A DNA stretch of 48,430 nucleotides, from the IMG/VR virus record IMGVR_UViG_3300022539_000112, positions 1 through 48,430 of that record, one strand, 5' to 3'. Origin of the DNA: a virus. Taxonomy: Duplodnaviria; Caudoviricetes. The notes under the pieces were generated by a model. It saw nothing but the letters and a program-made list of their open reading frames with translations, was not told the DNA's origin and made no database searches. Of this stretch, positions 7,126 through 32,025 are shown piece after piece. Position 1 is the first letter of the stretch. Every line of letters begins with the position of its first letter. The position numbers were made by a program, and so were the translations under genes.

Positions 7126-7473
7126 ATGGCACTTAAAACAGATTTATCGGATATGTCGATTGTTTCGACAAGGGCGAGTGTTGCCAAGGTGAACGTCACT
7201 TTGAAGATATGGGAGTCCGAGGACAATACGGTAACGGACACACCTTTGTTAGAGGAAGTGATTACCGAAAACAACGTAAAAGTTTGCGTTGAGGGCGAAA
7301 CGCCGGCAGCCTTGGCCGCAAGGATTAAGAGAAATATAAAGGCCCAGGCGCAGGGCAAAATAGATTACTACCAAACCGAGACGAAGAACATTGATACTGT
7401 CACTTCTGCCTTCCAAGACATGATAACCGAAGTTGACGGTGAACTGCAAAGTAAAAGTAAAGAGAAAATCTAA
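7126..7473 (+). CDS. hypothetical virion-associated protein
   Basis: AGGAG RBS, operon context. Confidence 0.75.
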   Translation: MALKTDLSDMSIVSTRASVAKVNVTLKIWESEDNTVTDTPLLEEVITENNVKVCVEGETPAALAARIKRNIKAQAQGKIDYYQTETKNIDTVTSAFQDMITEVDGELQSKSKEKI

Positions 7474-8117
7474 TGGCAGCGACAATAGAACTAAATAAAA
7501 CGACCACTGAATTACAGGCATGGGTCGTCTTAGACGATAACGCAAGCGGTACACCGTTTTTAGTAACTCCTCAGATAGATATAAGTTCCGAGGTATCATG
7601 TTTGATTCAGGCGGACATGGCGCAATGTAATACTACTGCGATTGGAACGGCGGGTGAATGTATCTTTTACGGCAAGACCGGCTCCACCCACGATGACTGG
7701 CACGAATTTGCAAGGCGTAGTTATGGTACGATAGCAAGTACGTCTTGCGACTTGTCTTCAGGTGTGGCCTCCGGCGAGATTTCCTGTGGAATGACTGATA
7801 CTTCCGGCGTTTTCATAGGGAACAGGGTCTTGATTTATTGTGCTTCGACTCCGGCGAACTCGATGGTCAATACCATAGCCGACATTTCCGCTGACCAACA
7901 GTTATATTTTTGTATGTCGGTCATTCAGGATTTTACCATAACCCAGACGGAGATAATGTGCCAGACGGCGGCGGCGGGGCACGGTGTCGCCCAGTGGGTC
8001 ATTAGAGTTCCCGAAGAATTTTGGGCGGCCAGGGTAAGTTTTCACAACGACGATGCGGACGTGAACTATTTAATTCGTTGTCAGTACAACTTTATTACGG
8101 ATTACACAAGTGTATAA
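7473..8117 (+). CDS. putative virion structural protein
   Basis: Beta-rich, T/S/D/C-rich; TAATG coupling. Confidence 0.75.
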   Translation: MAATIELNKTTTELQAWVVLDDNASGTPFLVTPQIDISSEVSCLIQADMAQCNTTAIGTAGECIFYGKTGSTHDDWHEFARRSYGTIASTSCDLSSGVASGEISCGMTDTSGVFIGNRVLIYCASTPANSMVNTIADISADQQLYFCMSVIQDFTITQTEIMCQTAAAGHGVAQWVIRVPEEFWAARVSFHNDDADVNYLIRCQYNFITDYTSV

Positions 8118-8883
8118 CCAAAAACCATTATCCGGTGATTTGATAGATTATGGCCATCCTTTAAGTCAAGGTCTTGTCGGTCTCTGGCTGATGAATGAAG
8201 GCTCAGGCAATAAAGTCTTTGATTTGAGCGGGAATGGAAATATAGGGACGTTTGTAAATAGTCCAATTTGGAAAGTGGGTAAGCATGGCTATGCTATAGA
8301 TTTCGTCTCAGCCAGTGACCAATATATAGATTTAGGTGTTGATGTAAGTATCCTAAAACCACAGACAATATCTGTTTCTGCCATTTTTAAGGCTGATTTA
8401 TTAACTGGAATAAGGGGTATCGTTGATGGCACAGATAGCGATGGTGATGATGGGTATATCTTAGCTTCAAATGGAACAGCACTTAACTTTTATATTGACG
8501 ATGGTGGTTTCAAAATTGCCACGGGAACTATTGCTGCTGGTATATGGTATCATGCTATAGGTACTTTTGATGGGGTGACAGTAAAATTATACATTAACGG
8601 AGTTTTACAGGCGACTACAGCAGGGGCGACAAAGGTGGATTATGGCATCTCAAGACATTTTATCGGTAGATACCTTAATGCAAGTTATGATTGGGATGGT
8701 TTAATCGATTCTGTATCTATCTACAACCGGGTCTTATCTGCTTCTGAGGCCGCCTTACTCCAAGAGCCTTTTTGTATGGTAAGGACGAGAAGGAGGAGGA
8801 TAATTACAGAAGAGATTGCGGGAGTACCTCCCACCACATTTCCATATTATTATAGAGAAATTGCAAGTAGGAGAATTGCTTAA
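8110..8883 (+). CDS. LamG/concanavalin A-like lectin domain protein
   Basis: GLVGLWLMNEGSG..DLSGNGN, WYHAIGTFDG..KLYING, IDSVSIYNRVLS. Confidence 0.9.
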   Translation: MYNQKPLSGDLIDYGHPLSQGLVGLWLMNEGSGNKVFDLSGNGNIGTFVNSPIWKVGKHGYAIDFVSASDQYIDLGVDVSILKPQTISVSAIFKADLLTGIRGIVDGTDSDGDDGYILASNGTALNFYIDDGGFKIATGTIAAGIWYHAIGTFDGVTVKLYINGVLQATTAGATKVDYGISRHFIGRYLNASYDWDGLIDSVSIYNRVLSASEAALLQEPFCMVRTRRRRIITEEIAGVPPTTFPYYYREIASRRIA

Positions 8884-10981: not shown

Positions 10982-11503
10982 ATGTTACACACATATCAAG
11001 GTAGTTATGTATTATTGGCTGAAGCTTCTCAGGACATTTCCGGTTTTGACGGCACATCGCCAGGACTTACTTCACATTGGCACGATTTACCTGCCAATAG
11101 ACCAGCGGGCGAATCACCGAATATCCGAGATGATACCCAAGGCACTATACAGGTAGGCGAGGAAGCTAACGGTTGTGTTATTATTGCCGCTTGTGTTTCC
11201 ACTGCTACAGAAGATAAGAATGGTGCTTTTGAACTCTGGGGGTGGGGCGAAATGGGGCCAGCCGAATACATAGCGGATATTTCTTGTACCACTGGTCTTA
11301 ATTTTATCAACGATTCTACTACAGCACTATATGTTGATACGATGGTAATTGATACTCAGTATCACGTCAAGACTCTTTCGGTAAAAGACAGTGCCAACAA
11401 CAGGATATGCAAACTCCATTTTGACATAGCTGGTCTCAAGTATCTTTCCTGTAGATGGTATGATATTACAGGTAAATGGGAGTCGTATATAAGGGTTTAC
11501 TAA
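10982..11503 (+). CDS. putative virion structural protein
   Basis: AAGGAG RBS, beta-rich composition. Confidence 0.75.
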   Translation: MLHTYQGSYVLLAEASQDISGFDGTSPGLTSHWHDLPANRPAGESPNIRDDTQGTIQVGEEANGCVIIAACVSTATEDKNGAFELWGWGEMGPAEYIADISCTTGLNFINDSTTALYVDTMVIDTQYHVKTLSVKDSANNRICKLHFDIAGLKYLSCRWYDITGKWESYIRVY

Positions 11504-14652: not shown

Positions 14653-15687
14653 ATGAGTACAGCAGATGTTACTAAAGCAACGAGGGAACTTTTCGATAGG
14701 ACTCTCGTTGACCAAGTTAGAATGCGAGTTCCTTTTCTTGAGGCGTTGGAGCGAAATGGCGGCGTAAAGTCAACCTTCAAGGGTGGTAAGTATATCGAGA
14801 AACTTATCGATACTGATACCATTGAATCTCTCGTTCAGGAATACACCGTCAATACAGCGTTGGTTGATGCCAAGAAAACGACTTTGGAGAAACCAAGGTT
14901 TACGTGGAAATACGCTACGCTACCGCTTCGGTACGATGTTGATGAAGAAGTTCAGAACGCCAACGCGGGCAATGAAGAGCAGTTGCTTGACTTGCCGGAA
15001 CATATGGTAACAAAATCCCACAGAGATTTAAGAAAATGGATGGAAGCCAAGATGTTCAATATCGGCAGTGCGACCGGAGTAGCTGACGGCGCTACATCCT
15101 TTCAGTCTTTGGTGTCCGCTCTGGATGTTGACGTTACCTATGGTACGATTACCAGGACGGCGGCGAGTAATATAGCCGACTACTGGCAGGGTGCCGACCC
15201 TTCAGGTTTGTGGTCGGGTATAACGGCGGGAACCCAAGGGACGGCGGTCAATATGACTTGCTCCAATATCCGTAAATGGGTAAACGAAAGTGATATTGCT
15301 CATTATATGGACGGTGCAGACGACCTAATGATTTTGATGTGTCCGACTTTGTGGAACAAGTTAGCTGCCGAGATGGAGTCTAAGCTGATTTACAAGCCTG
15401 GCCTCAAGCAATCTCAGGGTATTCGCAGTATGATTTTCGATAGTCACGAAATCGTCAGCGTTCCTTATCTCCAGACTACCAGCGAAATGAAGGCGTGGGT
15501 TTTTATTCTCAATCTTCGCCACTGGGAATGGAGAATGTGGAACAAGAGAGATTTCAAGTTCACCGGTTTCAAATGGCAGGGTGAAAATTCCAACGGTTAC
15601 GACTACTGGCTTGCCAGAGTTATGATGGTTGGAAACTTCTTCTGTTGGAAACCGAATAGCAGCATGTGGTTAAGCAATGTATCATAA
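14653..15687 (+). CDS. major capsid protein (HK97 fold)
   Basis: 344 aa after scaffold; LVDQV...PFL, GG..I, PRFTWKY pattern. Confidence 0.9.
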   Translation: MSTADVTKATRELFDRTLVDQVRMRVPFLEALERNGGVKSTFKGGKYIEKLIDTDTIESLVQEYTVNTALVDAKKTTLEKPRFTWKYATLPLRYDVDEEVQNANAGNEEQLLDLPEHMVTKSHRDLRKWMEAKMFNIGSATGVADGATSFQSLVSALDVDVTYGTITRTAASNIADYWQGADPSGLWSGITAGTQGTAVNMTCSNIRKWVNESDIAHYMDGADDLMILMCPTLWNKLAAEMESKLIYKPGLKQSQGIRSMIFDSHEIVSVPYLQTTSEMKAWVFILNLRHWEWRMWNKRDFKFTGFKWQGENSNGYDYWLARVMMVGNFFCWKPNSSMWLSNVS

Positions 15688-15701
15688 AGGACTTATGTAA
15701 A

Positions 15702-16165: not shown

Positions 16166-16840
16166 ATGGCTGGAATAGATGGTAAAAATGTAATAATGAT
16201 TGATTCGTGGCCCGGCCCGGTTGACTACCACATGAGCACTCCCACCAACGGGTTTGACTCTACGAAAGAAGGTAGCGGCAACTGTGTTACCGAGCCACTG
16301 TTTCGACCTGGCCAAAAGATAGCAGCGTATAACGATGCTACGACAAATTCAGGATGGTACACTTGTATCTATCTGAGATTTGTTGAAGGCTCGGATTTAG
16401 CTTACGACGCCGACCCCGATCCCAGTAGTGGTCATGGTTTGGTCTGTCACCTTCAGGATATGACAGAGCACGACCCTGAGACCTTACTTGCATGGTGGAA
16501 TGTTTCTTCGGATACCACGAATACTTGCGGTACGTTAGCTACACCAGTCGCTATGGCGATGCGTACTTTTTGTGGCGGCACAGATAGTACGGCAGGTGGC
16601 AGAAGTCCGGAATATGGTTGGTATTGGTGCGGTGGGGTATGTCCGTGTAATACCTTGAATGCGGCTGGTACAACGGATTACACCAAAACTGGTGGAAACT
16701 ATCCCACTGACGGTTCTGTTGTCATTAACAACTATATGGTTATTCAGGACAACGGCTCAAACTGTCTGAGATTTTCGAATTGGGACGGCACTTTGCCGGA
16801 GAATTTCCCGCAAGCGTGGGCAATGGCCACCGATGCGTAA
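16166..16840 (+). CDS. capsid decoration-like protein, paralog 1
   Basis: Shares DxWPG, GFD, GxKI, GWYWCGGVxP, TDG with the next three genes; strong RBS. Confidence 0.7.
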   Translation: MAGIDGKNVIMIDSWPGPVDYHMSTPTNGFDSTKEGSGNCVTEPLFRPGQKIAAYNDATTNSGWYTCIYLRFVEGSDLAYDADPDPSSGHGLVCHLQDMTEHDPETLLAWWNVSSDTTNTCGTLATPVAMAMRTFCGGTDSTAGGRSPEYGWYWCGGVCPCNTLNAAGTTDYTKTGGNYPTDGSVVINNYMVIQDNGSNCLRFSNWDGTLPENFPQAWAMATDA

Positions 16841-16893
16841 TACTCAGAATGCTGAGTAGAATGTAAATTAACTCTATTTTAAGGAGTACAAAT

Positions 16894-17493
16894 ATGGCAG
16901 CTTTAGGAGCAGAAGAATTTTTCTTGTTCGACACAATGCCAGGGTTAATAAACCCGAATATGAGCAAGCCGGTAAACGGTTTTGACAGTACGCATAGCAA
17001 CAATACTACTACTGCGGTTTATGTGCCTGGTACGAAGATAATGTCTTACCAGGAAGTCAGCACTACGGTTGCAGGCGCTCGCACTGCAAACATAGGGAGT
17101 TATGCTTGCATATATGCAAAGTATGTTTGTTCTACGACTGCACAGGATGTTTCCGCAGGGGACATAATGGTTCAATATTGTGGCAGTGCTGGTGTAAGGC
17201 CATTTGCTGTTACAAGGGAAGTAACCGCAAGTAATGGTAAACAACAGAATGCGTCGTGTGCCATTGCGTGTGCCGATATAACGCCGAATGCCTTTGGTTG
17301 GTATTGGTGTGCTGGTGTTTGTCCACAGACAGACGTAACCGCTTTAGACCAATCCACTTTTGTTACGGACACCTCTGTTGCAGCGGGTGAGGCTATGTGG
17401 ATAACCGTAGGTGCAAGCCACGCAACTTTATCCGGTACTGATGTTGCTGTTTCCGAACTGATAATCGGGAAAGCTTATGCTGATGACGCGTAA
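16894..17493 (+). CDS. capsid decoration-like protein, paralog 2
   Basis: Same motif set. Confidence 0.7.
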   Translation: MAALGAEEFFLFDTMPGLINPNMSKPVNGFDSTHSNNTTTAVYVPGTKIMSYQEVSTTVAGARTANIGSYACIYAKYVCSTTAQDVSAGDIMVQYCGSAGVRPFAVTREVTASNGKQQNASCAIACADITPNAFGWYWCAGVCPQTDVTALDQSTFVTDTSVAAGEAMWITVGASHATLSGTDVAVSELIIGKAYADDA

Positions 17494-17546
17494 TGACACA
17501 TAAGATTGTGTCTTAACAATAATTCTCTTTTTTAAGGAGATTAAAA

Positions 17547-18197
17547 ATGGCTGATATATTTTTACGGGACGTAATTATTTACGACCTTTGGCCAGGTACA
17601 CCAGACCCTAATTTGAGTTGTCCTACTGTTGGTTTTGATGATAGCGCTCAATGCTCGTCAACTCCGGTCTGGCCGTTGGGCACTAAGATTCAGGCATACA
17701 ATGACTCGACTTATGGCCCAGGCTATTACACGATGATTTACCTGCTATATGTCGAGACTTCTGACAATGCCGTCGATATTGGCGACCCATCGACAGGGTA
17801 CAACGCCTGTTTCCACGTTCAGGACGCTTGCGGTAATACGCCAGGCTCGGTAGTAGATTACTGGTACATGGTCACGAATGATGTGTCTAATAGTGATGCT
17901 ACTCAGGGCGGGGCAATAGCTTTTGCCGCCTATGATTTGTCAGGTCTTGCCCCCGATACGGAAACTAACGAATGCGGCTGGTTCTGGTGCGGGGGAGTTA
18001 ATCCTTGTATTACTACAACTGGATTCAAGGATTGTACTCGTCTTGCCGGTGAAATTAGAACTGACGGTTCTGTTCAGCAAGGCGTGTATTTTGGTGTATT
18101 AGGTGACGGAACAGAATGTGCCGCACTTGCGGGTTATGACAATTCAACCAATAACGTAGCTGCAATAGTTGGGTATGCCCTTGTTGCTGACGGTTAA
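17547..18197 (+). CDS. capsid decoration-like protein, paralog 3
   Basis: Same motif set; closest to paralog 4. Confidence 0.7.
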   Translation: MADIFLRDVIIYDLWPGTPDPNLSCPTVGFDDSAQCSSTPVWPLGTKIQAYNDSTYGPGYYTMIYLLYVETSDNAVDIGDPSTGYNACFHVQDACGNTPGSVVDYWYMVTNDVSNSDATQGGAIAFAAYDLSGLAPDTETNECGWFWCGGVNPCITTTGFKDCTRLAGEIRTDGSVQQGVYFGVLGDGTECAALAGYDNSTNNVAAIVGYALVADG

Positions 18198-21980: not shown

Positions 21981-21996
21981 TATCCAAAGGAGCAAA

Positions 21997-23259
21997 ATGT
22001 CTAACTGGCTAAAAACACTTGAAGTAATCCCCGATGGCGTTCAGACTCTTTCTAAGATGCCATCGAAGCACGTTGACGGAATATACCCAAAGTACATTAC
22101 TAAAGGCGATGGCGCCTACGTCTGGGGCGAAGACGATAAGAAATATATCGACTATCCCTGCGGACTCGGCGCCATCCTTTTGGGTTACAATAATCCGATA
22201 GTAAACAGGGCGATTATCGACCAGCTGAATAAGGGTGTTTTATTCTCACTTTCAAATTATCTTGAAACAGAATTAGCAGAAAAGATAGTTGATATTGTCC
22301 CATCCGCCGAACGAGTCAGATTCTTAAAGACGGGCAGTGAGGCTACTTCGGCTGCGGTCAAGATTGCCCGTGCCTATACCGGCAAGGAAGGGATAATCTG
22401 TATTGGTTATCACGGTTGGCACGATTGGTATAGTTTTACGACTACCAAGAACAAAGGAGTTCCCCAACAGCCAGTAGTCCAATGCAAGTACAATGATATT
22501 GATGCTATCATAGAGGCTTTCGATTATCAAAATAAAGAAACTGTCGGCATAGCTGCGGTCATTATGGAACCATACATTCTCGAAGAGCCGAAACAGGAAT
22601 ATTTACGCAAGGTCAGGAAGTTATGTGATCGTCACAATGCAGTATTGATATTCGATGAGATAATAACCGGCTTTCGTACTCTCGAATGGACTGCCCAAAA
22701 ATACTTCGATATAACGCCGGACTTAACCTGTCTGGGCAAGGCAATGGCTAATGGATTGCCAATTTCCGTTGTATGTGGCAAGAAAGAGCTAATGAAAGAG
22801 TTACAAGGTGACTGTTTTGTGTCTTCGACTTTCGGCGGGGAATTACTTTCGATTGCTGCTGCTCTTGCGACTATTAAAATAGTCGAGGAGCAAGGGGTTA
22901 TCAGGCAGATATGGGAGATGGGCGGTAGGTTCGTAGAAAGTTTTAAGATGATGGTCGGCACAATGAATCTAATTGATGGCGTTAGTATCATAGGGTATCC
23001 ACCTCGGACATTCTTTAAGTTTGAAACCGAAGCCCATAAGTCATTATTCTGGCAGGAATGCCTTAAAAAAGGAGTGTTATTTGGTTATGCCCAATTTATT
23101 AACTGGTCACACGGATTAGGTGAAATAGACCAAACTGTAATGGCAATGAGACACGCTTTAGGTATGGTCAGAAAATACTGGGAACATCCGATGGATGCTA
23201 TGGAAGGCCAAGTGGCGCAGGAAACTTTCAGATTAGTATGTGAGAAGGAGAAAAAATGA
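21997..23259 (+). CDS. class III PLP aminotransferase (glutamate-1-semialdehyde aminomutase-like)
   Basis: KTGSEAT, YHGWHDW, LIFDEIITGFR, PDLTCLGKAMANG. Confidence 0.92.
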   Translation: MSNWLKTLEVIPDGVQTLSKMPSKHVDGIYPKYITKGDGAYVWGEDDKKYIDYPCGLGAILLGYNNPIVNRAIIDQLNKGVLFSLSNYLETELAEKIVDIVPSAERVRFLKTGSEATSAAVKIARAYTGKEGIICIGYHGWHDWYSFTTTKNKGVPQQPVVQCKYNDIDAIIEAFDYQNKETVGIAAVIMEPYILEEPKQEYLRKVRKLCDRHNAVLIFDEIITGFRTLEWTAQKYFDITPDLTCLGKAMANGLPISVVCGKKELMKELQGDCFVSSTFGGELLSIAAALATIKIVEEQGVIRQIWEMGGRFVESFKMMVGTMNLIDGVSIIGYPPRTFFKFETEAHKSLFWQECLKKGVLFGYAQFINWSHGLGEIDQTVMAMRHALGMVRKYWEHPMDAMEGQVAQETFRLVCEKEKK

Positions 23260-23495
23260 AGTTACTTAAAAAGAAAATAGATAAATATAATTGTAAATGG
23301 AATAAGCCTGATGAAAGTGCTCCATGGGAATATCAAGAATGTCATTGTCCCGATAAATCATACGGATTTGTTGATACTCCAAATTTTTCAATGCCAATGA
23401 TATTTGATGTTTCCTGTGACCATCAAGCAAATTCTGGCCCCAGAAGTGGATTAGATTGTCCATATTTTGAAGAGGAAGAGAAGGAGAAAAATTGA
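23256..23495 (+). CDS. Cys-containing hypothetical protein
   Basis: Coupled ORF flanked by a 14-bp direct repeat. Confidence 0.65.
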   Translation: MKLLKKKIDKYNCKWNKPDESAPWEYQECHCPDKSYGFVDTPNFSMPMIFDVSCDHQANSGPRSGLDCPYFEEEEKEKN

Positions 23496-24103
23496 AACTT
23501 GAACCTCTTACTTTAGGACAATGTGAACAAGTACGTCTTTGGCGTAATGCCGAGATGGAAGTATGGCGTACACCATTTATGCTCACAGAGGAAATGCAGG
23601 TGGATTTCTACCAAAGATGCTGTGACCGAAATTCCCCGCATAGGTATTGGGCGATAGTTGCTGAAGAAGAAAAAGGAATAGATAGTCCAGAAAGTATTGC
23701 TGAAAGACAAGCCAAGTTTCTTATTAGACCTATTGGTTTTATCGGCATGGGTGGCATAACCTATATCCAATGGGAGAACCGAATAGGCGAGATAACTTTG
23801 ATAATAAATCCAGCATATCGGGATAAGCATTATGGCGAAGAAACAGTAGATTTACTCCTTGACCAAGCCTTCAATCATCTGAATCTCCAGACGGTTTTCG
23901 GAGAGGCATATATGTGCAATCCTTGGTGGGAATTTTGGAAGAAAGTGACACGTAAATATATTTATGAAGGCATAAGGGAAAAAGTTGGAACAGGTTGGGT
24001 AAATTTACCTAATCGTAAATATTGGCAAGGTCAATATTATTCAAGCTTATATTTTAGTATAGACAAAGATGACTTCAATAATAGTAACAAACAGGAACAG
24101 TAA
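23492..24103 (+). CDS. GNAT N-acetyltransferase (PseH/RimJ-like)
   Basis: VRLWRN, IGMGGITYIQWENRIGEI, AFNHLNL. Confidence 0.85.
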   Translation: MKLEPLTLGQCEQVRLWRNAEMEVWRTPFMLTEEMQVDFYQRCCDRNSPHRYWAIVAEEEKGIDSPESIAERQAKFLIRPIGFIGMGGITYIQWENRIGEITLIINPAYRDKHYGEETVDLLLDQAFNHLNLQTVFGEAYMCNPWWEFWKKVTRKYIYEGIREKVGTGWVNLPNRKYWQGQYYSSLYFSIDKDDFNNSNKQEQ

Positions 24104-24581
24104 CGGCGATATAACCAAGCGTGAAGATTTCACACCGGAGAAGTTGTTTCTTCTTAACGCTCTGGATTATATCTTCATACCTTTTTGGTCGTGGTATATC
24201 CCCGCCGAAATATACGAGAATTGGGAAGTAGTCATTTTTCACTGCACGGACTTGCCTTATGGACGGGGGGGCAGTCCGTTGCAGAATCTCATAGTTAGAG
24301 GCCACAAAGATACTAAGATAAGTGCTATTCGTTGCATTAAAGAAATTGATGCAGGTCCTATCTATATGCAGAGATATTTGCATATCGGTAAAGGAACGGC
24401 GAATGAAATATACGATAGAGCAGACAAGATAATACGAGAAGAAATGATACCTATTATTCTTAATATGAAACCCGAACCGAGACCACAGGTAGGCGAGCCG
24501 GTTTACTTTGATAAATGGGATTGTTCAACGGAAGATGTTATAAGAGCAGTAGCTACTGATTACGAGAGGGACAAAGGATGA
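24069..24581 (+). CDS. sugar N-formyltransferase (Fmt-like)
   Basis: FHCTDLPYGRGGSPLQNLI, IDAGPIY. Confidence 0.9.
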   Translation: MTSIIVTNRNSNGDITKREDFTPEKLFLLNALDYIFIPFWSWYIPAEIYENWEVVIFHCTDLPYGRGGSPLQNLIVRGHKDTKISAIRCIKEIDAGPIYMQRYLHIGKGTANEIYDRADKIIREEMIPIILNMKPEPRPQVGEPVYFDKWDCSTEDVIRAVATDYERDKG

Positions 24582-25360
24582 AGCTTGAAGAACTAACAGC
24601 TTTGTATAGTCCTCTTGATATTGAATATGCCCAGGCTATGTCCGGCCCTTACGAGGATTTATCTTTTAGGTCTGACGAAGTAACGGTTATAGCGGGGTTG
24701 AAAGACGGCAGGATTAGTGGTTTCTGGCGTCCTGTAGTCGCTGTGGGCGACGATAAGCTCCAAAAGCTACATATAGAGTGTCTTTACGATATATGCCGTA
24801 ATATCTACTATATGGACTTTCTAATAGACGGCAAGTTATCGGTGATAAGTCAGTTTCTTTTAAGGCACGGCCATAAGGCAAGGCCATATTATACGCAGAT
24901 TATAGATACGTCTAAAGACCCGGTTATTCTCCATATTGAGTTACGTAAAAGTTACAAGAGTTTAGTTAAGAAATATATGAATATAGAATATGGAGATATA
25001 AATGATTATAGATATTATCACGTTCGTACAACTAAGGAAAGGTGTGAGAAAAGTTGGGAAATCCAAGAGGAGATGATTTCAGACGGAGAAGCTGTGTGTA
25101 TGATAGATGGCGAGAATGCAGCGATACTAATATACAATAACGAATATTCTGCTTATTACGCAGGCGGTAAATCTACGACAGGTTTCAATACCCACGCTCT
25201 TATCTGGCAAGCAATCATAAGGAATAAGGGTAATATGTTTGAAATGGGCGAGCAAATATTTTCCAGTGACGAAAAACTCGTAAACATAAGCAAGTTCAAA
25301 CGTGGGTTTGGCGGTATGACCCAAACCCGACTAATTTTAGAGAAGGAGCAAAATGGCTAA
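24578..25360 (+). CDS. FemAB-like GNAT-fold acyl/aminoacyl transferase
   Basis: LRKSYKSLV, HALIWQAI, ISKFKRGFGG. Confidence 0.75.
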   Translation: MKLEELTALYSPLDIEYAQAMSGPYEDLSFRSDEVTVIAGLKDGRISGFWRPVVAVGDDKLQKLHIECLYDICRNIYYMDFLIDGKLSVISQFLLRHGHKARPYYTQIIDTSKDPVILHIELRKSYKSLVKKYMNIEYGDINDYRYYHVRTTKERCEKSWEIQEEMISDGEAVCMIDGENAAILIYNNEYSAYYAGGKSTTGFNTHALIWQAIIRNKGNMFEMGEQIFSSDEKLVNISKFKRGFGGMTQTRLILEKEQNG

Positions 25361-26726
25361 AAAGAAGGTAGCAAATAAAACTGTAGTACCGAAAAAGAAA
25401 ATCCTTATTCTTACCGCAAGCCCAAGGCGGGACATTCTGATAGACGAGCTTCTATCCGATGAGTTGCGGAAATTAGGTAACGATGTATGGGTTGCGCCCT
25501 GTTTACGTGAAGGCAGGGACAAGACTTTAGAGATTGAGCCTGATGTCGTACTCCTTCCGCCTATACGGAATATGTATAGCAGGGACTTTGCCGAGATGTT
25601 GAAAAGATGGGGCGTGGGTGTAGTTACGAGACATACCGAGCCAAGTTGCGATTGGGCTGATTTCAAAAGAATGGACGATAGGCAAAAGGCTGAGATATGG
25701 GGCAATATGCCGTACATAGCCGACTTGGAAATAGTCTGGGGCGATGATGAAGTTCAGATACTTGCCAAGAGGGGGTGTAGATTTCCGGTTCACGCGGTTG
25801 GTTCGTTTGCGACTGACATATATCTTAATCCCCGCTTCAAGAAAATATTCAAGCATCGAGATAAGTTCAACCAAAAATACAAGTTTGAGAAGTCCAAAAA
25901 AACGATATTGGTACAATCACCTTGGGGTTTTGCCGACCATTCGCCCGATTTGAGGATAGACGAGATAGACGAATTCAAAGAGGACATCGCCGGTAGGGAC
26001 AGGCATTTGGGTATGGTGGAACAATTACACAAGGCATTGGGCGATAAGTACAATATTCTCGTTACTACCCACCCAGGCGTTATTACTGAACCTTATAAGG
26101 AACGCCTTGATAAGCTGAAGATACCTCTTGATGTTGAATCTACGTCTTTGAAAATGATGTATAATTCGGATATTCTTATTCACGCCGGTTCGACTATGGC
26201 GGTTGGAGCGCATCTTCTCGGTATGCCAGCCTTCCAATTCGGCGATGCAAATGTAAAAGAATCTAAGAATTGGTGGAGCGACCATAACAAGATAATGTCG
26301 GAAATATCACCAATACTTGAGGTAAACTATTTAATTGAGAATATACGGAAAGCTTATTCTTTATCAAACGCCAACCTCAAAACTATCGAAGCTCTCGAAA
26401 AAGGCCGTTATGGCAAGATGGACGGCAAGGCTTACGAGAGGGCTGCGGTCTTAATAAATAAGGTTCAAGGCCATTTCAAGATGTGCTGGCCAAAGACACA
26501 TCGAGATTATAACCAGCTTACCATTGTCAAGTATCCACACCAGATATTGAATAGCGTGGTTTGTGGGATATGCAAAGAGCAATTCCAAGCAGTCAGCAAG
26601 GATTGGATTGATAAACTCTTAGTCAATATCGGCAAGGAGCACACTAACGACTTAAAACCGAAGTTCGGTACGTGCTGTCCTCATTGCGGCTCTAAGTTTA
26701 TCATGGGTAAGGGGATGATGATATGA
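25353..26726 (+). CDS. surface carbohydrate biosynthesis protein, putative GT-B glycosyltransferase
   Basis: ASPRRD, HTEP, VWG, THPG, LIHAGST pattern; C-terminal Zn ribbon. Confidence 0.65.
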   Translation: MAKKKVANKTVVPKKKILILTASPRRDILIDELLSDELRKLGNDVWVAPCLREGRDKTLEIEPDVVLLPPIRNMYSRDFAEMLKRWGVGVVTRHTEPSCDWADFKRMDDRQKAEIWGNMPYIADLEIVWGDDEVQILAKRGCRFPVHAVGSFATDIYLNPRFKKIFKHRDKFNQKYKFEKSKKTILVQSPWGFADHSPDLRIDEIDEFKEDIAGRDRHLGMVEQLHKALGDKYNILVTTHPGVITEPYKERLDKLKIPLDVESTSLKMMYNSDILIHAGSTMAVGAHLLGMPAFQFGDANVKESKNWWSDHNKIMSEISPILEVNYLIENIRKAYSLSNANLKTIEALEKGRYGKMDGKAYERAAVLINKVQGHFKMCWPKTHRDYNQLTIVKYPHQILNSVVCGICKEQFQAVSKDWIDKLLVNIGKEHTNDLKPKFGTCCPHCGSKFIMGKGMMI

Positions 26727-27355
26727 AGAGTAAAATCATAGACGCCGAAAAAGGTATTGTAGAGGTAACGCCAAAACGGAAAAAGGTAGCTATAATCGGT
26801 TGTGGTGCAGGTAGGGACAATGCTCCTTATGACGATAAGGAATGGGAATGTTGGGGCTTGAACGAAGTTGACCAGAAACGTGCCGATAGATGGTTTGAGA
26901 TACACGAGCTATATGCTTCAAGCGAAAAAGAAGTTGAATGGCTTAAAAAATGCAAGCAACCGATATATATGATAAAAGTATATCCCGAAATACCAATGTC
27001 GGTGTCTTATCCTCTGGTTGAAGTTACGATAGGAATGGGTAGTCCTACGTATTTCACTTGCACCTTTGCTTACCAAATAGCTCTTGCTATCTATGAAAAA
27101 TTTGAGGTAATTGGTATGTTCGGCGTGAACTTGCCTTATGGCTCGCCAAGAGAAAGACTTATAGAAACGCCCTGTACTGAATTTTGGCTTGGCGTAGCGG
27201 CTGGAATGGGTATAGAGATTCAGATTCCACCGGACGAATATCTTTTGCATCATCAGTATTTATACGGATACGAATATCAAGAGGAAATAGATTATACTAA
27301 GAAAAAAGTAGCTGCTATGTGGGGCAGAATGCAGACCGATTTGTACTTAAAATGA
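26723..27355 (+). CDS. Maf/DUF115-like, sialyltransferase-fold candidate transferase
   Basis: VAIIGCG...WGLN...DRWFEIH...AYQIALAIY...IGMFGVN. Confidence 0.6.
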   Translation: MKSKIIDAEKGIVEVTPKRKKVAIIGCGAGRDNAPYDDKEWECWGLNEVDQKRADRWFEIHELYASSEKEVEWLKKCKQPIYMIKVYPEIPMSVSYPLVEVTIGMGSPTYFTCTFAYQIALAIYEKFEVIGMFGVNLPYGSPRERLIETPCTEFWLGVAAGMGIEIQIPPDEYLLHHQYLYGYEYQEEIDYTKKKVAAMWGRMQTDLYLK

Positions 27356-28002
27356 AAACAGTTGTAGCGATAATTCAAGCCAGATTAGGTAGTACGAGAT
27401 TGCCGAACAAGGTACTCTTAAAGATACCGCCCGATAGCAATATAACCTGTTTGGGTAGGGTTATAGAAAGGCTCAAGAATTGTACGTTACTGGATGAGAT
27501 TATTTTAACTACGCCTGATAAAGAATTGTGTAAAATAGCTAAAAGTTACGGAATTATAAGCCGGAGATATTATGGCAAACGAGATGTTTTACGGGAATAT
27601 CGTGAAGTAATACGGGACTTTTCAGATGCCAATATTATTGTCAGGATTACTGCCGATTGCCCATTGATAGACCCTGATATAGTTGACCAGTGTATAGATG
27701 AATTTCTTGACAGTAATGTAGATTTAGTCTATAACACTGATGAGAGCAATGGTCAGTTAAATGGCGAAGGTAGTGATGTAGAAGTTTTTTCATCTCAAGC
27801 TCTCAGATGGACTTCTTTTGAAGCCAAAACGCCTTCTGACAGAGAACATATAACAAGGTATATGAGACGGACAATGAATACTAAATATGTACCTATGAAA
27901 AAGTTAGGAATCAAGAGTTTGAATACTTGGGAAGATTACCAAGATATTTGCAGGATATACGAAAATGAAGGTACTCATTGTAGCAGCCCATCCAGACGAT
28001 GA
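27352..28002 (+). CDS. cytidylyltransferase (SpsF/PseF/NeuA-like)
   Basis: IIQARLGSTRLPNKVL, VRITADCPLIDP, DREHIT; ATGA overlap start. Confidence 0.9.
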   Translation: MKTVVAIIQARLGSTRLPNKVLLKIPPDSNITCLGRVIERLKNCTLLDEIILTTPDKELCKIAKSYGIISRRYYGKRDVLREYREVIRDFSDANIIVRITADCPLIDPDIVDQCIDEFLDSNVDLVYNTDESNGQLNGEGSDVEVFSSQALRWTSFEAKTPSDREHITRYMRRTMNTKYVPMKKLGIKSLNTWEDYQDICRIYENEGTHCSSPSRR

Positions 28003-28531
28003 AGTTCTTGGATGTGGCGGGACAACTGAACGATTGAAAAGAGAAGGCCACGAAGTTAAAGTAACTTGGCTTGGTGCTGGTAGAGGTAGCGAATTTGATA
28101 ATCAATTTGACACGAATCTACTATTGTATTGGGTAGAAATTGTTGAAAAGCATATTGAAAGTTGTAAGCCCGAAATTATCTTTACCCATTACGAAAAAGA
28201 CCTAAACATAGACCATCGAATAACTTATCAAGCGGTAATAACAGCAGCAAGACCAGAACCGGATTGTTGCGTAAAAGAGATATATTCTTTTGAGATACCA
28301 AGTTCTACCGAATGGGCTTTTCCAACAAGTTTTTCGCCGAACGTATTTTATGATATAACAGACTATATTTCGATAAAAGAAAAGACGCTTATGGCACATT
28401 ATAAGGACGAGATGCGAGAATATCCTCATCCACGTTCCCAAGTTGGAGTCGATGTTTTAGCTGCCTATCGTGGTACGCAATGTGGTGTCAGATATGCTGA
28501 AGCCTTCAAAACAGTGAGACGAATTTTATGA
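27965..28531 (+). CDS. PIG-L/LmbE family deacetylase
   Basis: AAHPDDEVLGCGGT, DLNIDH, YPHPRS, AEAF. Confidence 0.92.
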   Translation: MKVLIVAAHPDDEVLGCGGTTERLKREGHEVKVTWLGAGRGSEFDNQFDTNLLLYWVEIVEKHIESCKPEIIFTHYEKDLNIDHRITYQAVITAARPEPDCCVKEIYSFEIPSSTEWAFPTSFSPNVFYDITDYISIKEKTLMAHYKDEMREYPHPRSQVGVDVLAAYRGTQCGVRYAEAFKTVRRIL

Positions 28532-28553: not shown

Positions 28554-29501
28554 ATGTCAATACATCCAGACGGGACAGGAACAGGTTGGACAAACGTTGA
28601 GGCCGTTGACGTAAATCAACCTCACGGCAAGGATTATTTATATAGCCAGCACATAGCAAAAGGTGTTCGCAAAAGGATGAATCAGGAGCATTCGACCTTT
28701 GCCGATGCTACTGTAGGAGGGATACATACTCCTGGGGGATGTGCAGTTCTCGGAATGGAGATAACCGATGATTGTACTGCGCCTGTAGTTGGGGATGGTA
28801 CATATCGAGGACACGGACTTCTTTGGTCTTTGAGTAAGGACACAAGCAATTTCGGAGTTTTGTGGTGTTCTACTAAAGCTGCCGGTTCAAGTACGACCGG
28901 CGACTGGACGGTTCTTAAAATGCACCCTGACCTTCAATGGAGCGGTCAAGATGTTACCTGGGCGGGTGCGCACGAGTTCGATGCCTCTGTGGATATATCC
29001 GGTAACGTGGCAATGGATGGCGATTTGACTATTGATGGAGTATTAAAAGTCGATAGCTCTTGTGAGATTTCTGATGTTTATATCAATGGCGATATATCAA
29101 TGACTGGTTCTATTAAAGTGGCCACTGATGTTTCTATTACCGGCGATATGGCTATTGACGGCACTTCTAATTTTTATGGTGAGTGTGATTTTTCAGTTGC
29201 TAATGTTTATTTAAGTATAAATGGTACTCCGACCAAAGTATATACAAAATTTTTAACAGGAAATCTTGATGCCGATGCTGCAACTGATGTAGCACACGGA
29301 TGTGTGGTAGCAAACATTCTAAGCGTATCAGTTATTGCTTATGATGATGTCCTTACTGGTTATAGAGTATCAGAACATTTTATAGCAGCAGACGCAGACG
29401 CAGGTTATACAATTTATTACGATGCTGCAAATATTAAAATTAGTAATGTTGGGGCTGATTTACAAGGTAATGCTTACAGAATCAGAATTGAATATACATA
29501 A
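28554..29501 (+). CDS. tail fibre/needle-like virion protein
   Basis: GDLTIDG-type beta repeats; distinct C-terminal domain. Confidence 0.7.
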   Translation: MSIHPDGTGTGWTNVEAVDVNQPHGKDYLYSQHIAKGVRKRMNQEHSTFADATVGGIHTPGGCAVLGMEITDDCTAPVVGDGTYRGHGLLWSLSKDTSNFGVLWCSTKAAGSSTTGDWTVLKMHPDLQWSGQDVTWAGAHEFDASVDISGNVAMDGDLTIDGVLKVDSSCEISDVYINGDISMTGSIKVATDVSITGDMAIDGTSNFYGECDFSVANVYLSINGTPTKVYTKFLTGNLDADAATDVAHGCVVANILSVSVIAYDDVLTGYRVSEHFIAADADAGYTIYYDAANIKISNVGADLQGNAYRIRIEYT

Positions 29502-29538
29502 GGAATTTAATGGTATTTTTAGATAGAGAGAAATAACA

Positions 29539-32025
29539 ATGTCTCCGCTTATACAAAATCCAGATTTAGGATTGAATGCTTTAGTACCGCCTAACGCCCT
29601 TGATTTACGAGAAGCGGCTGAGGGTAGTCAGAATTTGGTCTATGAATATGGAATTTTGCGAAAGCCTTATGGTTTTGCCAAGATCGATTTAACATCCGGT
29701 CTTAATAGTGGCGATACAATTCTTTCTACCTTTCAATGGAAAGAGCTTGACGATACTGGTCACTTAACGGCAGTGACTACGGAAAAGATATATGACCACG
29801 ACAGGGTGAATAACGAATGGGACGACAAGACACAAGATAGCGTTACAATGGCCTCTGCTATTGATACTCCCATAAGCTACGCTGTTGTAGGGCACGATGA
29901 TACTGCTATATATCTTGACGATGATACTTCAAGGGCAAAAGCGTATCATCATGTAGTTGTATGTGACGGCGGCTTATCGAATATACAAAGGTGGGCGGGT
30001 AAATGGGAAACTGATTTTGGCGATTTGGTTGGCGGTGGCGGTTATCACGATGGTACGCAGCATAGAGCCTTGCAAGTGAGTTTATCTAAAAGAAACAGAT
30101 TACTGTTATTGAGTCCGAGATTATATAGTTCAAGTACGGCCACCTGGGTAGAAAACAATCAAATGATACAATGGCCTACTATTGGCAAGATAGAGACTTG
30201 GACGGGAACGGGTTCAGGGTTTTCTCTTTTATTAGATACGGCAGGTACAAATGTCTGGAGTGCGTCTCTGGGCAGTGACCATATAATTTATCAGACAAGA
30301 GGAATATGGTCTTTGAATTGGGTCGGCGGAACAACTGTTTTTAGTCCTGTTCCGGTTATACCGGATTTGGGACTTTTGAGTTATCATTTATTATTCAGTT
30401 ATAACAATGTTCACTATTTCGTAGGAACAGATTTTAATGTCCACGCTTACTATGGTGGTTCGGTAAGAAAATCTATCGGCGATAAGATACATAAATATCT
30501 TCAGGAAGACTTAGATCCAAAGTACAAAAATCGCTGTTGGCTAAGAATGGGGCCAAAGGGCAGGTTCTTGTATATATTCATAGTGCCATCCGGCTCGACT
30601 TATATTACAAAAGCATATCGAAGGAATATGCAGACCGAAGCGTGGATGGTAATGGATTACTATAACGCCTGGAGTAGTACGACCGGTATATCCGCTATAT
30701 GTCTTGCAGGGGCGGAAAGTTATACTATTGGCGAAACTTACCAGACAGCACTGGATACCAATTCCGCCTATGCCGTTTCCGATGCTGGTGATATTACAAG
30801 ACGTTATGCCGATAACCTTTTGGAGATAAGCCGGACATTGACGAAAGATTATACGGCGGGTACGTGGGGTGCCGGTGGCCTTGATTACAGTAAGGCGGCA
30901 GAAGCGTTTACAGCGGATATTTCCGAAAACGATATTTTGGCGTGTTACGATGGTTCAAACGCTACCAATACGAGATATGGTACTCATTTTTATACTGTGT
31001 TCGATGTTTCGACTAACGGCTTTGCTGTCCGACCCACAGAGGACAAGACGACCAACCAAGAACACGGGATAGCCGATACGAGCACTAACGTACCTGCCGA
31101 CTTGTCCATAGACGGTCTTGATACGGTAGGTTTCTTTTCGGCTTGCGACAGTGGCGTAGTAGGTGATACTTATGAACAAGTATCACAAAATATTCAACAG
31201 CAGGAAAGACTTATTTTTGGGGATGATGCTGGATACATTTATAAGATCGATGAGACTTATACTACTAATAACGGCTACAATATAGACAGCAGGCACTTGA
31301 CCCCGGTAATAGATGGCGGATTGCCCGGCGCTTATAAAAGGTGGCCTGGCATAAGAGTGACGGCAAAAGGTGATAATTTTAATATTAGGAGTAGAATCGG
31401 CAACTTTGATACAAAGGAGATAGGATGGACGGATATAAGTCAGGAACTTACAAACGAATGGGTGAACTATGAATTTCCCTTAAATATAACTTCTAAGAAA
31501 ATTCAATGGTCAATCAGGGGACATAGAACCTTTGAATGGATTGAAATATCAAGTTCTCATTATGATAGCCATTGTGGGGATGATGGTATTCATACAATTG
31601 AAGGAGCGCTTGGTGGAACAGAATTTTGGGGAGATGAACTTGAACACACACATTGGTTTATTCTTAATTTAGGCCAAAGATATGATGTTAAGAAAATTAG
31701 AAGTCGTTCAATTCTTCCCTATGCCCCAATAGATGTCAATATTTATGTTTCAAATGAGAAAGGAATTTGGGGAACAGCAGTAAAAACTGGAATATCTACA
31801 TGGCACGATACATCATCTTGGGTTGAAATAGATGTAATGGAAAAAAATGGTCAATATGTCAAGGTGGAAATAATCAGCACAGAACTTGCTCTTAATTATC
31901 TTGCTTGGGGAAAAAGTTCTCCATATATGAATATTTTTGATGTTTATATTTCTTCTTCAGATAGTGAAACATTTCAAGTATCCGACTTTGAAATTATACC
32001 GCCTACAATCGAGGACAATCGTTAA
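29539..32025 (+). CDS. tail tubular protein B / P22 gp10-like nozzle with discoidin-like insert
   Basis: GLN...QNLVYEYGILRKPYG N-terminus, beta-propeller-like body, HWFILNLG...GQYVKVEI insert. Confidence 0.75.
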   Translation: MSPLIQNPDLGLNALVPPNALDLREAAEGSQNLVYEYGILRKPYGFAKIDLTSGLNSGDTILSTFQWKELDDTGHLTAVTTEKIYDHDRVNNEWDDKTQDSVTMASAIDTPISYAVVGHDDTAIYLDDDTSRAKAYHHVVVCDGGLSNIQRWAGKWETDFGDLVGGGGYHDGTQHRALQVSLSKRNRLLLLSPRLYSSSTATWVENNQMIQWPTIGKIETWTGTGSGFSLLLDTAGTNVWSASLGSDHIIYQTRGIWSLNWVGGTTVFSPVPVIPDLGLLSYHLLFSYNNVHYFVGTDFNVHAYYGGSVRKSIGDKIHKYLQEDLDPKYKNRCWLRMGPKGRFLYIFIVPSGSTYITKAYRRNMQTEAWMVMDYYNAWSSTTGISAICLAGAESYTIGETYQTALDTNSAYAVSDAGDITRRYADNLLEISRTLTKDYTAGTWGAGGLDYSKAAEAFTADISENDILACYDGSNATNTRYGTHFYTVFDVSTNGFAVRPTEDKTTNQEHGIADTSTNVPADLSIDGLDTVGFFSACDSGVVGDTYEQVSQNIQQQERLIFGDDAGYIYKIDETYTTNNGYNIDSRHLTPVIDGGLPGAYKRWPGIRVTAKGDNFNIRSRIGNFDTKEIGWTDISQELTNEWVNYEFPLNITSKKIQWSIRGHRTFEWIEISSSHYDSHCGDDGIHTIEGALGGTEFWGDELEHTHWFILNLGQRYDVKKIRSRSILPYAPIDVNIYVSNEKGIWGTAVKTGISTWHDTSSWVEIDVMEKNGQYVKVEIISTELALNYLAWGKSSPYMNIFDVYISSSDSETFQVSDFEIIPPTIEDNR

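Follow-up and report, generated by a model that had tools for sequence, protein, structure and literature searches.

A likely sugar-coating signal, [D/C]-x-[S/T], in predicted virion proteins of a phage clade that carries a nonulosonic-acid gene cluster

We describe a three-residue motif, [D/C]-x-[S/T], that is enriched in predicted virion proteins of an uncultured phage (Duplodnaviria; Caudoviricetes) and, among its relatives, restricted to those bearing a nonulosonic-acid (NulO) sugar cluster; we read it as a likely new signal that directs sugar onto the particle. The window, i.e., the whole stretch of DNA analyzed, is the 48,430-nt record IMGVR_UViG_3300022539_000112. On balance, we favor a cytoplasmic, phage-encoded system that O-links a pseudaminic-like sugar to the Ser/Thr of this motif. 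More tentatively, and with less than even confidence, ORF 25353 might be a stand-alone phage NulO transferase that reads the three-residue sequon, whose own Asp/Cys at −2 would join recognition or catalysis, with self-made sialic-acid-like plating at thousands of sites and perhaps S-linkage at the Cys sites.

Results

The motif in the window

The proteins evaluated are listed below, with Asp followed by Ser/Thr at +2 given over all Asp and p taken from composition shuffles.

7473..8117, + strand: 214 aa, no known family, a putative virion protein by gene position and a weak motif carrier (6/15 Asp sites, p 0.048; 4/9 Cys sites)
10982..11503, + strand: 173 aa, upstream of the portal, a putative virion protein and motif carrier (6/13, p 0.0055)
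14653..15687, + strand: major capsid protein, an unenriched internal control (4/22; phrog_9953, E 1.5e-15)
16166..16840, + strand: predicted capsid decoration (cement) paralog 1, fold assigned via the family (9/17, p 0.001)
16894..17493, + strand: predicted capsid decoration paralog 2 (6/10, p 0.0055)
17547..18197, + strand: predicted capsid decoration paralog 3 (10/20, p 0.0005)
18213..18866, + strand: predicted capsid decoration paralog 4 (6/15 Asp sites, p 0.026; 4/11 Cys sites)
19236..19940, + strand: head-tail adaptor (8/25, p 0.0085; PF24175 SU10_adaptor, E 1.7e-9)
28554..29501, + strand: probable short fiber with a beta-helix-like middle, the strongest carrier (15/32 versus 5.3 expected, p 0.0005; 15/23 in aa 1-214; weak bactofilin match, E 3e-4)
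29539..32025, + strand: probable tail nozzle (19/66, p 0.0115; phrog_3287 virion structural protein, E 4e-17), with sites in aa 1-200 and 401-600 and none in 201-400

Pooled over the nine carriers (ORFs 7473, 10982, 16166, 16894, 17547, 18213, 19236, 28554, and 29539), 85 of 213 Asp are followed by Ser/Thr at +2 versus 36.0 expected (observed/expected, O/E, 2.36); TerL has 3/39. Hand counts made in the first-pass annotation were all reproduced exactly, and the enrichment survives composition shuffles. It is confined to the +2 offset (O/E 1.08 at +1, 0.98 at +3, 1.06 at +4, and 0.78 at −2), and it is also seen for C-x-S/T (22/67, O/E 1.94), with E-x-S/T and N-x-S/T at 1.09 and 0.94. Motif Ser/Thr draw on all ten Ser/Thr codons, and in the other five reading frames 2-15 sites occur versus 3.5-9.4 expected; the motif is a protein-level, in-frame feature with no DNA-level effect. 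An unbiased scan of all gapped residue pairs ranked D+2 S/T first, ~90 orders of magnitude above the next unrelated pair. The nine proteins were picked after inspection, and two of them reach only p 0.026 and 0.048.

No enrichment was seen in the major capsid protein and portal (8/69, O/E 1.08), in five other likely outer proteins (ORFs 8110, 8883, 10686, 18885, and 32025; 13/79, O/E 1.02), or in the remaining window proteins, so the initial description of a motif that "saturates" virion surface proteins went too far. Paralog 4 (ORF 18213) yielded an AlphaFold model with pLDDT 86, and the 13 best fold matches of the decoration model are all phage head entries, e.g., 8qsy_JI (Z 6.5, rmsd 2.8 over 103 aa) and 8hdt_G (Z 5.7), which are modest scores (Z under 8); a Foldseek search with this model returned nothing significant. 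These fold matches, and a location following the major capsid gene, predict ORFs 16166-18213 to be capsid cement (beta-tulip) proteins. Judged by eye, no signal-peptide-like N-terminus occurs among 14 outer proteins.

Motif grammar, turnover, and location

The motif was refined to [D/C]-x-[S/T], with x uncharged and small or hydrophobic, and with Pro avoided directly after Ser/Thr (8/814 versus 117/2906 after other Ser/Thr); Pro is accepted at x, where D-P is followed by Ser/Thr in 30/61 cases from four families. Within alignment columns, Asp and Ser/Thr are coupled in the decoration (OR 3.5, z 6.8) and 28554 (OR 2.9, z 6.4) families, whereas offsets 1 and 3 and the control groups give ORs of about 1 or less, and Cys is coupled to +2 Ser/Thr like Asp (OR 2.97, z 5.5), all of these z values, and the one for Glu below, ignoring kinship. 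Of the proposed exchange of Asp with Cys or Glu, the Cys half therefore holds, while Glu is only a tolerated substitute (column-stratified OR 1.15, z 0.9). Asn, Ser, and Thr show no coupling to +2 Ser/Thr (OR 1.05, 0.78, and 0.88).

Gain and loss affect the D and S/T of a site as a pair, at many alignment columns; for example, 23 decoration proteins use 42 different Asp columns, only one of which is occupied in at least 80% of proteins. This paired turnover and the +2-only coupling bear out the suggestion that the motif behaves like a recognition site, and the aligned paralog examples offered for it stand as given, except that the DVT of ORF 16894 is not in the DYT/DCT/DCT column. Retention of motif residues is 0.79 for Ser/Thr and 0.73 for Asp. 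Motif Ser/Thr lie on core strands in 32/844 cases versus 407/1811 for other Ser/Thr, loop location (off core strands, one model) serving as a proxy for exposure, and on the decoration model sites are predicted in coils, turns, and helix starts. In Asx turns and calcium loops, Asp is replaceable by Asn (and Ser/Thr) and not by Cys; judged by residue substitution, the motif appears unlike either.

Relatives with and without the sugar cluster

A comparison, set beforehand, of homologs with and without the sugar cluster found the motif confined to cluster carriers: O/E was 2.06-3.90 in 27 phages with the cluster and 0.73-1.48 in 15 without, ranges that do not overlap, and the enrichment is repeated in 26 phages besides the window. 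NeuB is present in 9/10 motif-clade records versus 0/17 others of the family. By protein, O/E was 2.85 in the cluster clade versus 1.09 without the cluster for 28554 orthologs, and in the clade versus outside it was 2.28 versus 1.02 for 10982 orthologs, 3.22 versus 1.72 and 1.45 for the decoration family, 1.86 versus 1.38-1.41 for the adaptor, and 1.94 versus 1.23-1.25 for the ORF 29539 family; ORF 7473 has three clade homologs (O/E 1.70), and the clade major capsid protein stands at 0.98. Across the five main families, Ser/Thr at D+1 gave per-family O/E values of 0.65-1.32. The motif spans six or more unrelated protein families and dozens of unconserved columns, and proteins of the clade have greater length and Cys content.

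Three near-complete non-motif records carry the glycosyltransferase (GT), and none of the ten other cluster genes searched was found in them. Relatives with the GT and without the cluster are weakly raised (pooled O/E 1.26, decoration 1.72) and keep the motif Asp somewhat better (0.68 versus 0.57), which indicates a partly generic signal. On the capsid-protein tree, the motif-clade rows placed there form one clade, and hence cluster and motif count as a single evolutionary event. In an unrelated lineage that also has this GT family together with NeuB and a cytidylyltransferase, 139 motifs occur versus 137 expected and no other gapped pair is clear, and a search through GT and FemAB-like alignments found no second independent motif origin. 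The suggested link to the sugar cluster is thus upheld among relatives of the window, where only cluster bearers have the motif, but it is drawn from one clade and does not extend to this second NulO lineage. Two genome bins holding such phage contigs, sampled at ~0.4 Mb each and not necessarily true hosts, showed no host-wide motif (740/719 and 643/623; O/E 0.99 and 0.90 in S/T-rich subsets).

The sugar cluster and the candidate writer

The NulO cluster sits between the adaptor and fiber genes, and gene frequencies were counted over 13 cluster phages (BLAST clustering).

19858..20220, + strand: small Cys-rich protein at the cluster start, GT-fused in three relatives; no family match
20198..21031, + strand: nonulosonic acid synthase, PseI-like, core (13/13; PF03102, E 4e-73; TIGR03586, 290 bits versus cut-off 340; NeuB model, 213)
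21025..21867, + strand: UDP-GlcNAc 4,6-dehydratase, PseB-like (10/13; TIGR03589, 382 bits versus cut-off 408)
21997..23259, + strand: class III aminotransferase, core (13/13; PF00202, E 5e-57)
23492..24103, + strand: GNAT acetyltransferase, weakly PseH-like, accessory (4/13; by profile in two more records)
24069..24581, + strand: formyltransferase, accessory (3/13; PF00551)
24578..25360, + strand: FemAB-like GNAT protein, core (13/13; TIGR04421, E 5e-4, homolog 2e-8), a probable aminoacyl transferase for the sugar
25353..26726, + strand: predicted GT-B glycosyltransferase with a C-terminal zinc ribbon, candidate motif writer
26723..27355, + strand: accessory phage protein, at most weakly Maf/MptE-like (2/13)
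27319..28002, + strand: cytidylyltransferase (CMP activation of the sugar; 11/13; PF02348, E 1e-20)
27965..28531, + strand: PIG-L family de-N-acetylase, accessory (3/13; PF02585)

PseB and PseI are the best-matching models for ORFs 21025 and 20198, both below their cut-offs. PseC is absent from the cluster, with the class III aminotransferase in its place, and the PseG hydrolase gave no model match in 5/5 records; because no PseG is encoded, host enzymes probably assist donor synthesis.

The GT-B assignment of ORF 25353 comes from sequence-family matches (NF046086, the BFO_1060 family, E 5e-22, 78.6 bits versus cut-off 200; TIGR04396, E 5e-18), and four relatives score 76-98 bits against the same NF046086 cut-off of 200. 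Its profile matched no solved glycosyltransferase structure, returning zinc-finger noise only, and no TPR family was found in 15 members of the GT family, the GT model beginning at residue 17. A separate GT subfamily (H94, E133, HP, and a Trp insertion) characterizes the motif clade; in it, the HP motif of bacterial sialyltransferases occurs in 17/18 rows, with HA in one. ORF 25353 is likely the motif writer and a distant relative of the Tannerella NulO transferases; the association with the motif is equally tight for the aminotransferase gene, the FemAB-like gene, and the GT subfamily.

Other assignments were considered. As the missing PseG hydrolase, ORF 25353 matched no PseG model, and its family also occurs alone or beside a NeuC-like gene (by eye), which would make a transferase likelier than PseG. 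ORF 26723, put forward in the first-pass annotation as a Maf-like core transferase, was dropped from that role since it occurs in only 2/13 cluster phages; it has no Pfam, PHROG, or NCBIfam match, an Atlas value of 0.83 to a cluster with 16% PF01973, and a single-sequence model of pLDDT 32. A kinase (AAA_33) adjoins or is fused to the GT in some relatives, and was rejected as writer because no AAA_33 gene is annotated in this window.

Discussion

In the mechanism we favor, the cluster would make a CMP-activated pseudaminic-like NulO, and the clade-specific, predicted GT-B ORF 25353 would attach it to motif Ser/Thr, recognizing the carboxylate or thiolate at −2 as a short anionic side chain. 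Loops of cement, adaptor, fiber, and nozzle would then carry the sugar as a dense acidic coat, with a glycan shield or host mimicry as putative functions. Points against this mechanism include the unenriched major capsid protein, the motif-free NulO lineage, the Tannerella relatives, which in the available accounts glycosylate sugar and not protein, and the flagellin NulO transferases, which are reported without a consensus sequence.

A structural or metal-binding trait of one clade, in which Asp caps turns and short helices in longer loops and the cluster is co-inherited, would fit the single clade on the capsid tree, the modeled position of sites in coils, turns, and helix starts, the relatives' baseline (O/E 1.2-1.3, up to 1.7), and the longer, Cys-richer clade proteins. 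We consider it unlikely, since the turn-capping alternatives Asn, Ser, and Thr are uncoupled (OR 1.05, 0.78, and 0.88) where Cys is coupled (2.97), at least six unrelated families and dozens of unconserved columns are involved, and 28554 and 10982 orthologs of similar length lack the motif. That the signal arises from composition, selective picking, or a DNA-level motif, as might be suspected from the post hoc selection of nine proteins and the two p values of only 0.026 and 0.048, is very improbable: per-protein shuffle, offset, codon, and frame controls refute it, and D+2 S/T comes first in the unbiased scan and repeats in 26 other phages.

Also unlikely, if anything slightly more so than a structural trait, is an enzyme site with other chemistry, where Asp/Cys would be the acceptor (S-linked at Cys) and Ser/Thr a helper as in N-x-S/T, or where a core enzyme, e.g., FemAB-like 24578, acylates. 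The Asp/Cys equivalence fits a nucleophile, 24578 is in 13/13 cluster phages and was not seen in the loci of the motif-free lineage, and Pro is avoided after Ser/Thr as in the N-x-S/T sequon. That sequon disfavors Pro after S/T and does not take it at x, whereas here Pro is tolerated at x (30/61 D-P, four families); further, motif Ser/Thr are kept at least as well as Asp (0.79 versus 0.73), and an acyl ketoside on Asp would be expected to be labile. Less probable again is a host cytoplasmic transferase that reads the motif and adds the first sugar, ORF 25353 only capping the glycan with phage NulO. Characterized 25353 relatives do transfer onto sugar, and a single recognizable GT in the core cluster, with a pathway lacking PseG, makes host input likely, but the two sampled bins, which may not be true hosts, have no general enrichment, and conserved residues and an insertion set the clade GT apart.

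If direct attachment by ORF 25353 is true, the three-residue sequon would give cytoplasmic NulO protein transferases a new rule of specificity, because these are reported, in the available sources, without a consensus sequence, and it would provide a portable tag for putting pseudaminic-like sugars, within the cytoplasm, on proteins of choice. Such a sequon-directed transferase would be the first described within the literature examined, where, in a coverage mostly outside subscription journals, neither the motif nor a NulO coat on phage virions was found described.

Comparison with known systems

For the flagellin NulO transferases FlmG and Maf, the available text gives no known consensus sequence, FlmG binding flagellin via a TPR domain and using a GT-B domain (PMC7591256; bioRxiv 10.1101/2022.03.25.485807). 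The proposed system would share with this flagellin O-glycosylation by Pse/Leg a soluble cytoplasmic transferase, a CMP-NulO donor, Ser/Thr on an exposed polymer, and genes beside the NulO pathway; unlike FlmG, ORF 25353 has a zinc ribbon and no TPR, and its targets share a linear motif.

The Tannerella forsythia enzymes Tanf_01245 / TFUB4_00887 / BFO_1060 are described as capping a glycan at a ManNAcA residue, in a system whose sequon on exported proteins is D-(S/T)-(A/I/L/V/M/T) (PMC5420450). They form the nearest named family of ORF 25353 (NF046086) and share its predicted GT-B/TagB-like character and its HP motif, and they use a Pse or Leg donor, the same donor class proposed for ORF 25353, which, unlike them, scores far below the family cut-off and would act on proteins with Asp at −2 and no signal peptide. 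The Bacteroidota sequon does not describe the window (D+1 O/E 1.08 in the nine proteins), nor does the N-glycosylation sequon N-x-S/T (for Asn, window O/E 0.94 and clade O/E 0.89).

Among viruses, the HRPV-1 VP4 N-glycan is reported to end in 5-N-formyl-legionaminic acid (PMC6137143), likewise a NulO on a prokaryotic virion, as proposed here, and the window's cluster holds a formyltransferase; that glycan differs in being host-made and N-linked to Asn on an enveloped archaeal virus. Virion glycosylation is also described for mycobacteriophages Che8 and Rita (Freeman et al. 2023, as summarised in PMC11256854), with phage-encoded glycosyltransferases, as here, and glycans proposed as a shield. 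In those phages the major capsid protein is modified, whereas here that protein is spared and many loop sites on cement, fiber, and tail proteins carry the motif, and, unlike them, this phage also encodes donor synthesis. If true, virion glycosylation would extend from mycobacteriophages to a clade encoding most of its own donor pathway.

Phage setting and motif carriers

The window takes in the entire 48,430-base record, which is linear with an estimated completeness of 84%, and family searches of the window found a terminase, portal, major capsid protein, SU10-type adaptor, and ejection-type protein, matches by which we assign it to a podovirus-like phage. The nonulosonic-acid (NulO) sugar cluster (20198-28531) lies inside the structural operon, with the adaptor on one side and ORF 28554 on the other. 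Relatives were found in bins titled Planctomycetota, Pirellulales, and Thermodesulfovibrionales, and one homolog was named from a Phycisphaerae bin. Separately, the 1446-aa ejection-type protein (34939-39279) carries an ART-PolyVal ADP-ribosyltransferase domain at aa 427-543 (PF18760, E 3e-9), and an Endonuclease VII-type gene (15666-16139) separates the capsid gene from the first decoration gene and is also found in relatives L002, L065, L102, and L110.

All hand counts of D-x-S/T made in the first-pass annotation were reproduced, and each of the nine proteins it named (ORFs 7473 and 10982, decoration paralogs 16166, 16894, 17547, and 18213, adaptor 19236, 28554, and 29539) exceeded 2,000 composition shuffles (p 0.0005 to 0.048). 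Pooled, these nine hold the motif at 85 of 213 Asp versus 36.0 expected, with observed/expected ratios (O/E) of 0.78-1.08 at offsets +1, +3, +4, and -2. All Ser/Thr codons are used at motif sites, and other reading frames hold no comparable signal. The motif is real and well controlled; an artefact is very improbable. The claim that it saturates virion surface proteins went too far, as capsid plus portal (8/69, O/E 1.08) and five other likely outer proteins (13/79, O/E 1.02) stand at expectation, and the remaining 43 window genes are likewise unenriched (54/504, O/E 1.03). Two proteins encoded in the terminase-portal interval (8110-10283), one with a LamG domain and one with Gly-rich repeats, lack the motif and may be recent arrivals; the LamG homolog in L001 has 9/25 (3.5 expected), and the homolog of ORF 8883 in L006 has 8 sites versus about 3 expected.

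The four paralogs 3' of the capsid gene gave a good model (pLDDT 86) from an 89-row alignment. Structural comparison put phage head entries in all of the top 13 ranks, with 8qsy_JI first (Z 6.5, rmsd 2.8, 103 aa) and 8hdt_G among them, and Foldseek returned no significant match for the model; the ranked entries, at modest Z, fit capsid cement proteins. The paralogs stand in tandem (16166-18866), and relatives have 1-4 copies, motif-bearing and motif-free alike. The adaptor was identified from Pfam, and position and weak matches suggest that 28554 is a fibre, 29539 a nozzle, and 7473 and 10982 virion proteins. No signal peptides were seen in the carriers, N-termini being judged by eye.

Motif turnover and grammar

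Motif positions turn over extensively: 42 different Asp columns occur across 23 decoration proteins, only one of them common to at least 80%, and 62 across 14 homologs of 28554. Within columns, Asp and the +2 Ser/Thr are gained and lost jointly (odds ratio (OR) 3.5 in decoration proteins, 2.9 in 28554, and 1.45 in the nozzle), with z-scores that ignore kinship, as is equally true of the control groups; coupling was not significant for the adaptor and 10982, and for decoration proteins and 28554 it was absent at offsets 1 and 3 and in control groups. Between nearest relatives, motif Asp is retained in 773/1066 cases (0.73) versus 0.54 for other Asp, and motif Ser/Thr at 0.79 versus 0.53, with x at 0.47 versus 0.50; control groups trend more weakly in the same direction (0.68 vs 0.57; 0.64 vs 0.58).

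The proposed exchange of Asp with Cys or Glu stood for Cys, which is coupled to +2 Ser/Thr (OR 2.97, z 5.5; O/E 1.75 vs 0.19 and 0.39 in controls), but barely for Glu (OR 1.15); Asn at the first position is uncoupled (OR 1.05). When a motif Asp is lost, replacement by Glu or Cys is commoner, and replacement by Asn rarer, than at other Asp positions. Ser/Thr frequency at D+2 depends on x (hydrophobic 0.50, Gly 0.48, Pro 0.49, acidic 0.25, and K/R/H/Q 0.19), and Pro directly after the motif Ser/Thr is rare (8/814 vs 117/2906, p 3e-6). Mapped on the model as a proxy for exposure, motif Ser/Thr fall on core strands in 32/844 cases versus 407/1811 for other Ser/Thr, in the 66 of 89 alignment rows picked for enrichment.

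Comparison of cluster-bearing and cluster-free relatives

Enrichment is bimodal among the 90 decoration homologs: the first 66 nearly all reach about three times the expected count, also where identity is down to 27-30%, and the last 24 are mostly unenriched. Loci of relatives were fetched with four queries, and from the window plus L001-L172 we kept the 68 that encoded a homolog of a decoration protein, of 28554, or of 10982 and in which a cluster gene was visible or the cluster slot was covered, excluding the others. These collapse to 42 distinct phages, labelled for the cluster independently of the motif. In this comparison of relatives, which the annotation had proposed, O/E spans 2.06-3.90 in the 27 phages with the cluster and 0.73-1.48 in the 15 that lack it. 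Whole-record searches found NeuB in 9/10 motif-clade records (the tenth starts inside PseB), in 0/11 records with the glycosyltransferase (GT) only, in 0/6 without GT, and not in one 5-kb fragment; ten other cluster genes were all absent from three near-complete GT-only records.

O/E for D-x-S/T by family, motif group versus comparison groups; groups were drawn after gene maps and counts were known, and some fragments are too short to reveal a cluster
Decoration: 3.22 vs 1.72 and 1.45
28554: 2.85 vs 1.09 and 0.65
Nozzle: 1.94 vs 1.25 and 1.23
Adaptor: 1.86 vs 1.38 and 1.41
10982: 2.28 vs 1.02
Internal controls, motif group: capsid 0.98, portal 0.62, scaffold 0.66

In one cluster-free relative, G012:C1:2-2287 and 46164-49832 are possibly one very large secreted protein spanning the end repeat, with a signal-peptide-like start and beta-helix-, LamG-, and Fn3-like parts (by eye); its first part has 22 D-x-S/T versus 11.7 expected.

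Sugar pathway and candidate writer

A gene census of 13 cluster phages with loci spanning the slot found the synthase, class III aminotransferase, and FemAB-like gene each in 13/13, the cytidylyltransferase in 11/13, PseB and an aldo-keto reductase each in 10/13, and accessory ORF 26723 in 2/13; the GT is present in every locus spanning the slot. The pathway is Pse-like and non-canonical. Neither PseC nor PseG was found in it; we therefore describe the product no more closely than as Pse-like, and a step of its synthesis is probably left to the host. The window cluster lacks the aldo-keto reductase and has a formyltransferase, deacetylase, GNAT, and 26723 as extras, gene differences which suggest that sugar substituents differ between phages.

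Motif-clade GTs form their own subfamily (support 100), with His94 versus Arg in all 18 others, Glu133 instead of Phe, HP in 17/18 rows, and a Trp-bearing insertion. Weak Atlas leads for ORF 25353, the window's GT, are PF04464 (19% of one cluster) and PF07388 (18%). In three relatives (L064:6477-9602, L065:8963-11326, and L066:323-2620), the GT is fused C-terminal to a small Cys-rich protein and a P-loop (AAA_33-type) domain; L061, L068, L102, and L171 have a separate ~154-aa gene of this kind within the cluster.

A separate phage lineage (five records) with the same GT family, NeuB, and cytidylyltransferase has 139 D-x-S/T versus 137 expected in its Ser/Thr-rich proteins, and no other clear motif there; in 12 GT rows of cluster-free relatives the motif is slight or absent. 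Thus neither the NulO cluster nor the GT family is sufficient. On sequence alone the candidates for the link, the clade's GT subfamily on one side and the aminotransferase and FemAB-like gene on the other, are inseparable. In sister phages (L023, L030, L042, L045, L049, L050, and others), which have no donor genes and may use host CMP-sugar, the GT remains part of the structural operon, often adjoining a SAM methyltransferase or radical SAM gene. In the separate, unrelated lineage (L076, L077, L078, L080, L084, and L088; G029-G033), the GT family directly follows the capsid and decoration genes, with NeuB, NeuC-like, cytidylyltransferase, amidotransferase-like, and radical SAM genes 3' of it (partly by eye). 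The small structural proteins of this lineage are rich in Ser, Thr, and Ala, poor in Asp, and free of a clear motif; they may represent the same coat in a form that uses no sequon.

Proposed mechanism and alternatives

We consider it reasonably probable that late in infection the cluster supplies CMP-NulO, which 25353 links to the Ser/Thr of [D/C]-x-[S/T] on exposed loops; linkage would be cytoplasmic, as the apparent lack of signal peptides suggests. Phage lambda gpD is present at about one cement protein per capsid subunit, and at that ratio a particle would bear thousands of acidic sugars, possibly for shielding, stability, or adhesion.

Kinship is the main caveat on the cluster-motif correlation: in the capsid tree (47 rows), one clade (support 97/92) unites the 18 motif rows with L021, for which a recheck showed enrichment in the decoration protein as well (8/16 vs 2.2 expected), and the correlation is thereby a single event. 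A structure inherited within the clade accordingly keeps a small but appreciable chance, and what speaks most against structure as the whole explanation is the substitute for Asp: turn capping or calcium binding would call for Asn, where Cys is seen instead. A small chance also attaches to Asp/Cys being the acceptor or to another enzyme being the writer. ORF 25353 matches NF046086 well below cut-off (E 5e-22), the family of the Tannerella Pse/Leg transferases, which according to PMC5420450 act on a sugar residue to cap an O-glycan; that here the host primes the site and the phage caps it has a slim chance. A host-wide motif was absent from samples of two bins with such phages, though these bins may not be hosts.

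Comparison with known systems

The comparison draws on PMC5420450, PMC7591256, PMC6137143, PMC11256854, PMC12801897, and preprints, and literature searches listed no description of this motif or of a phage NulO coat. Mycobacteriophages are known to encode glycosylation of their virions (secondary summary in PMC11256854), and an archaeal virion with host-made legionaminic acid is described in PMC6137143. For flagellin glycosylation by FlmG/Maf, PMC7591256 and bioRxiv 10.1101/2022.03.25.485807 give no known consensus sequence, and the FlmG TPR domain binds its flagellin substrate; the phage system would work alike without being a member of either family, and it belongs to neither the N-x-S/T nor the Bacteroidota D-S/T systems. 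Candidate [D/C]-x-[S/T] would thus probably add a new sequon to a type of system already known.
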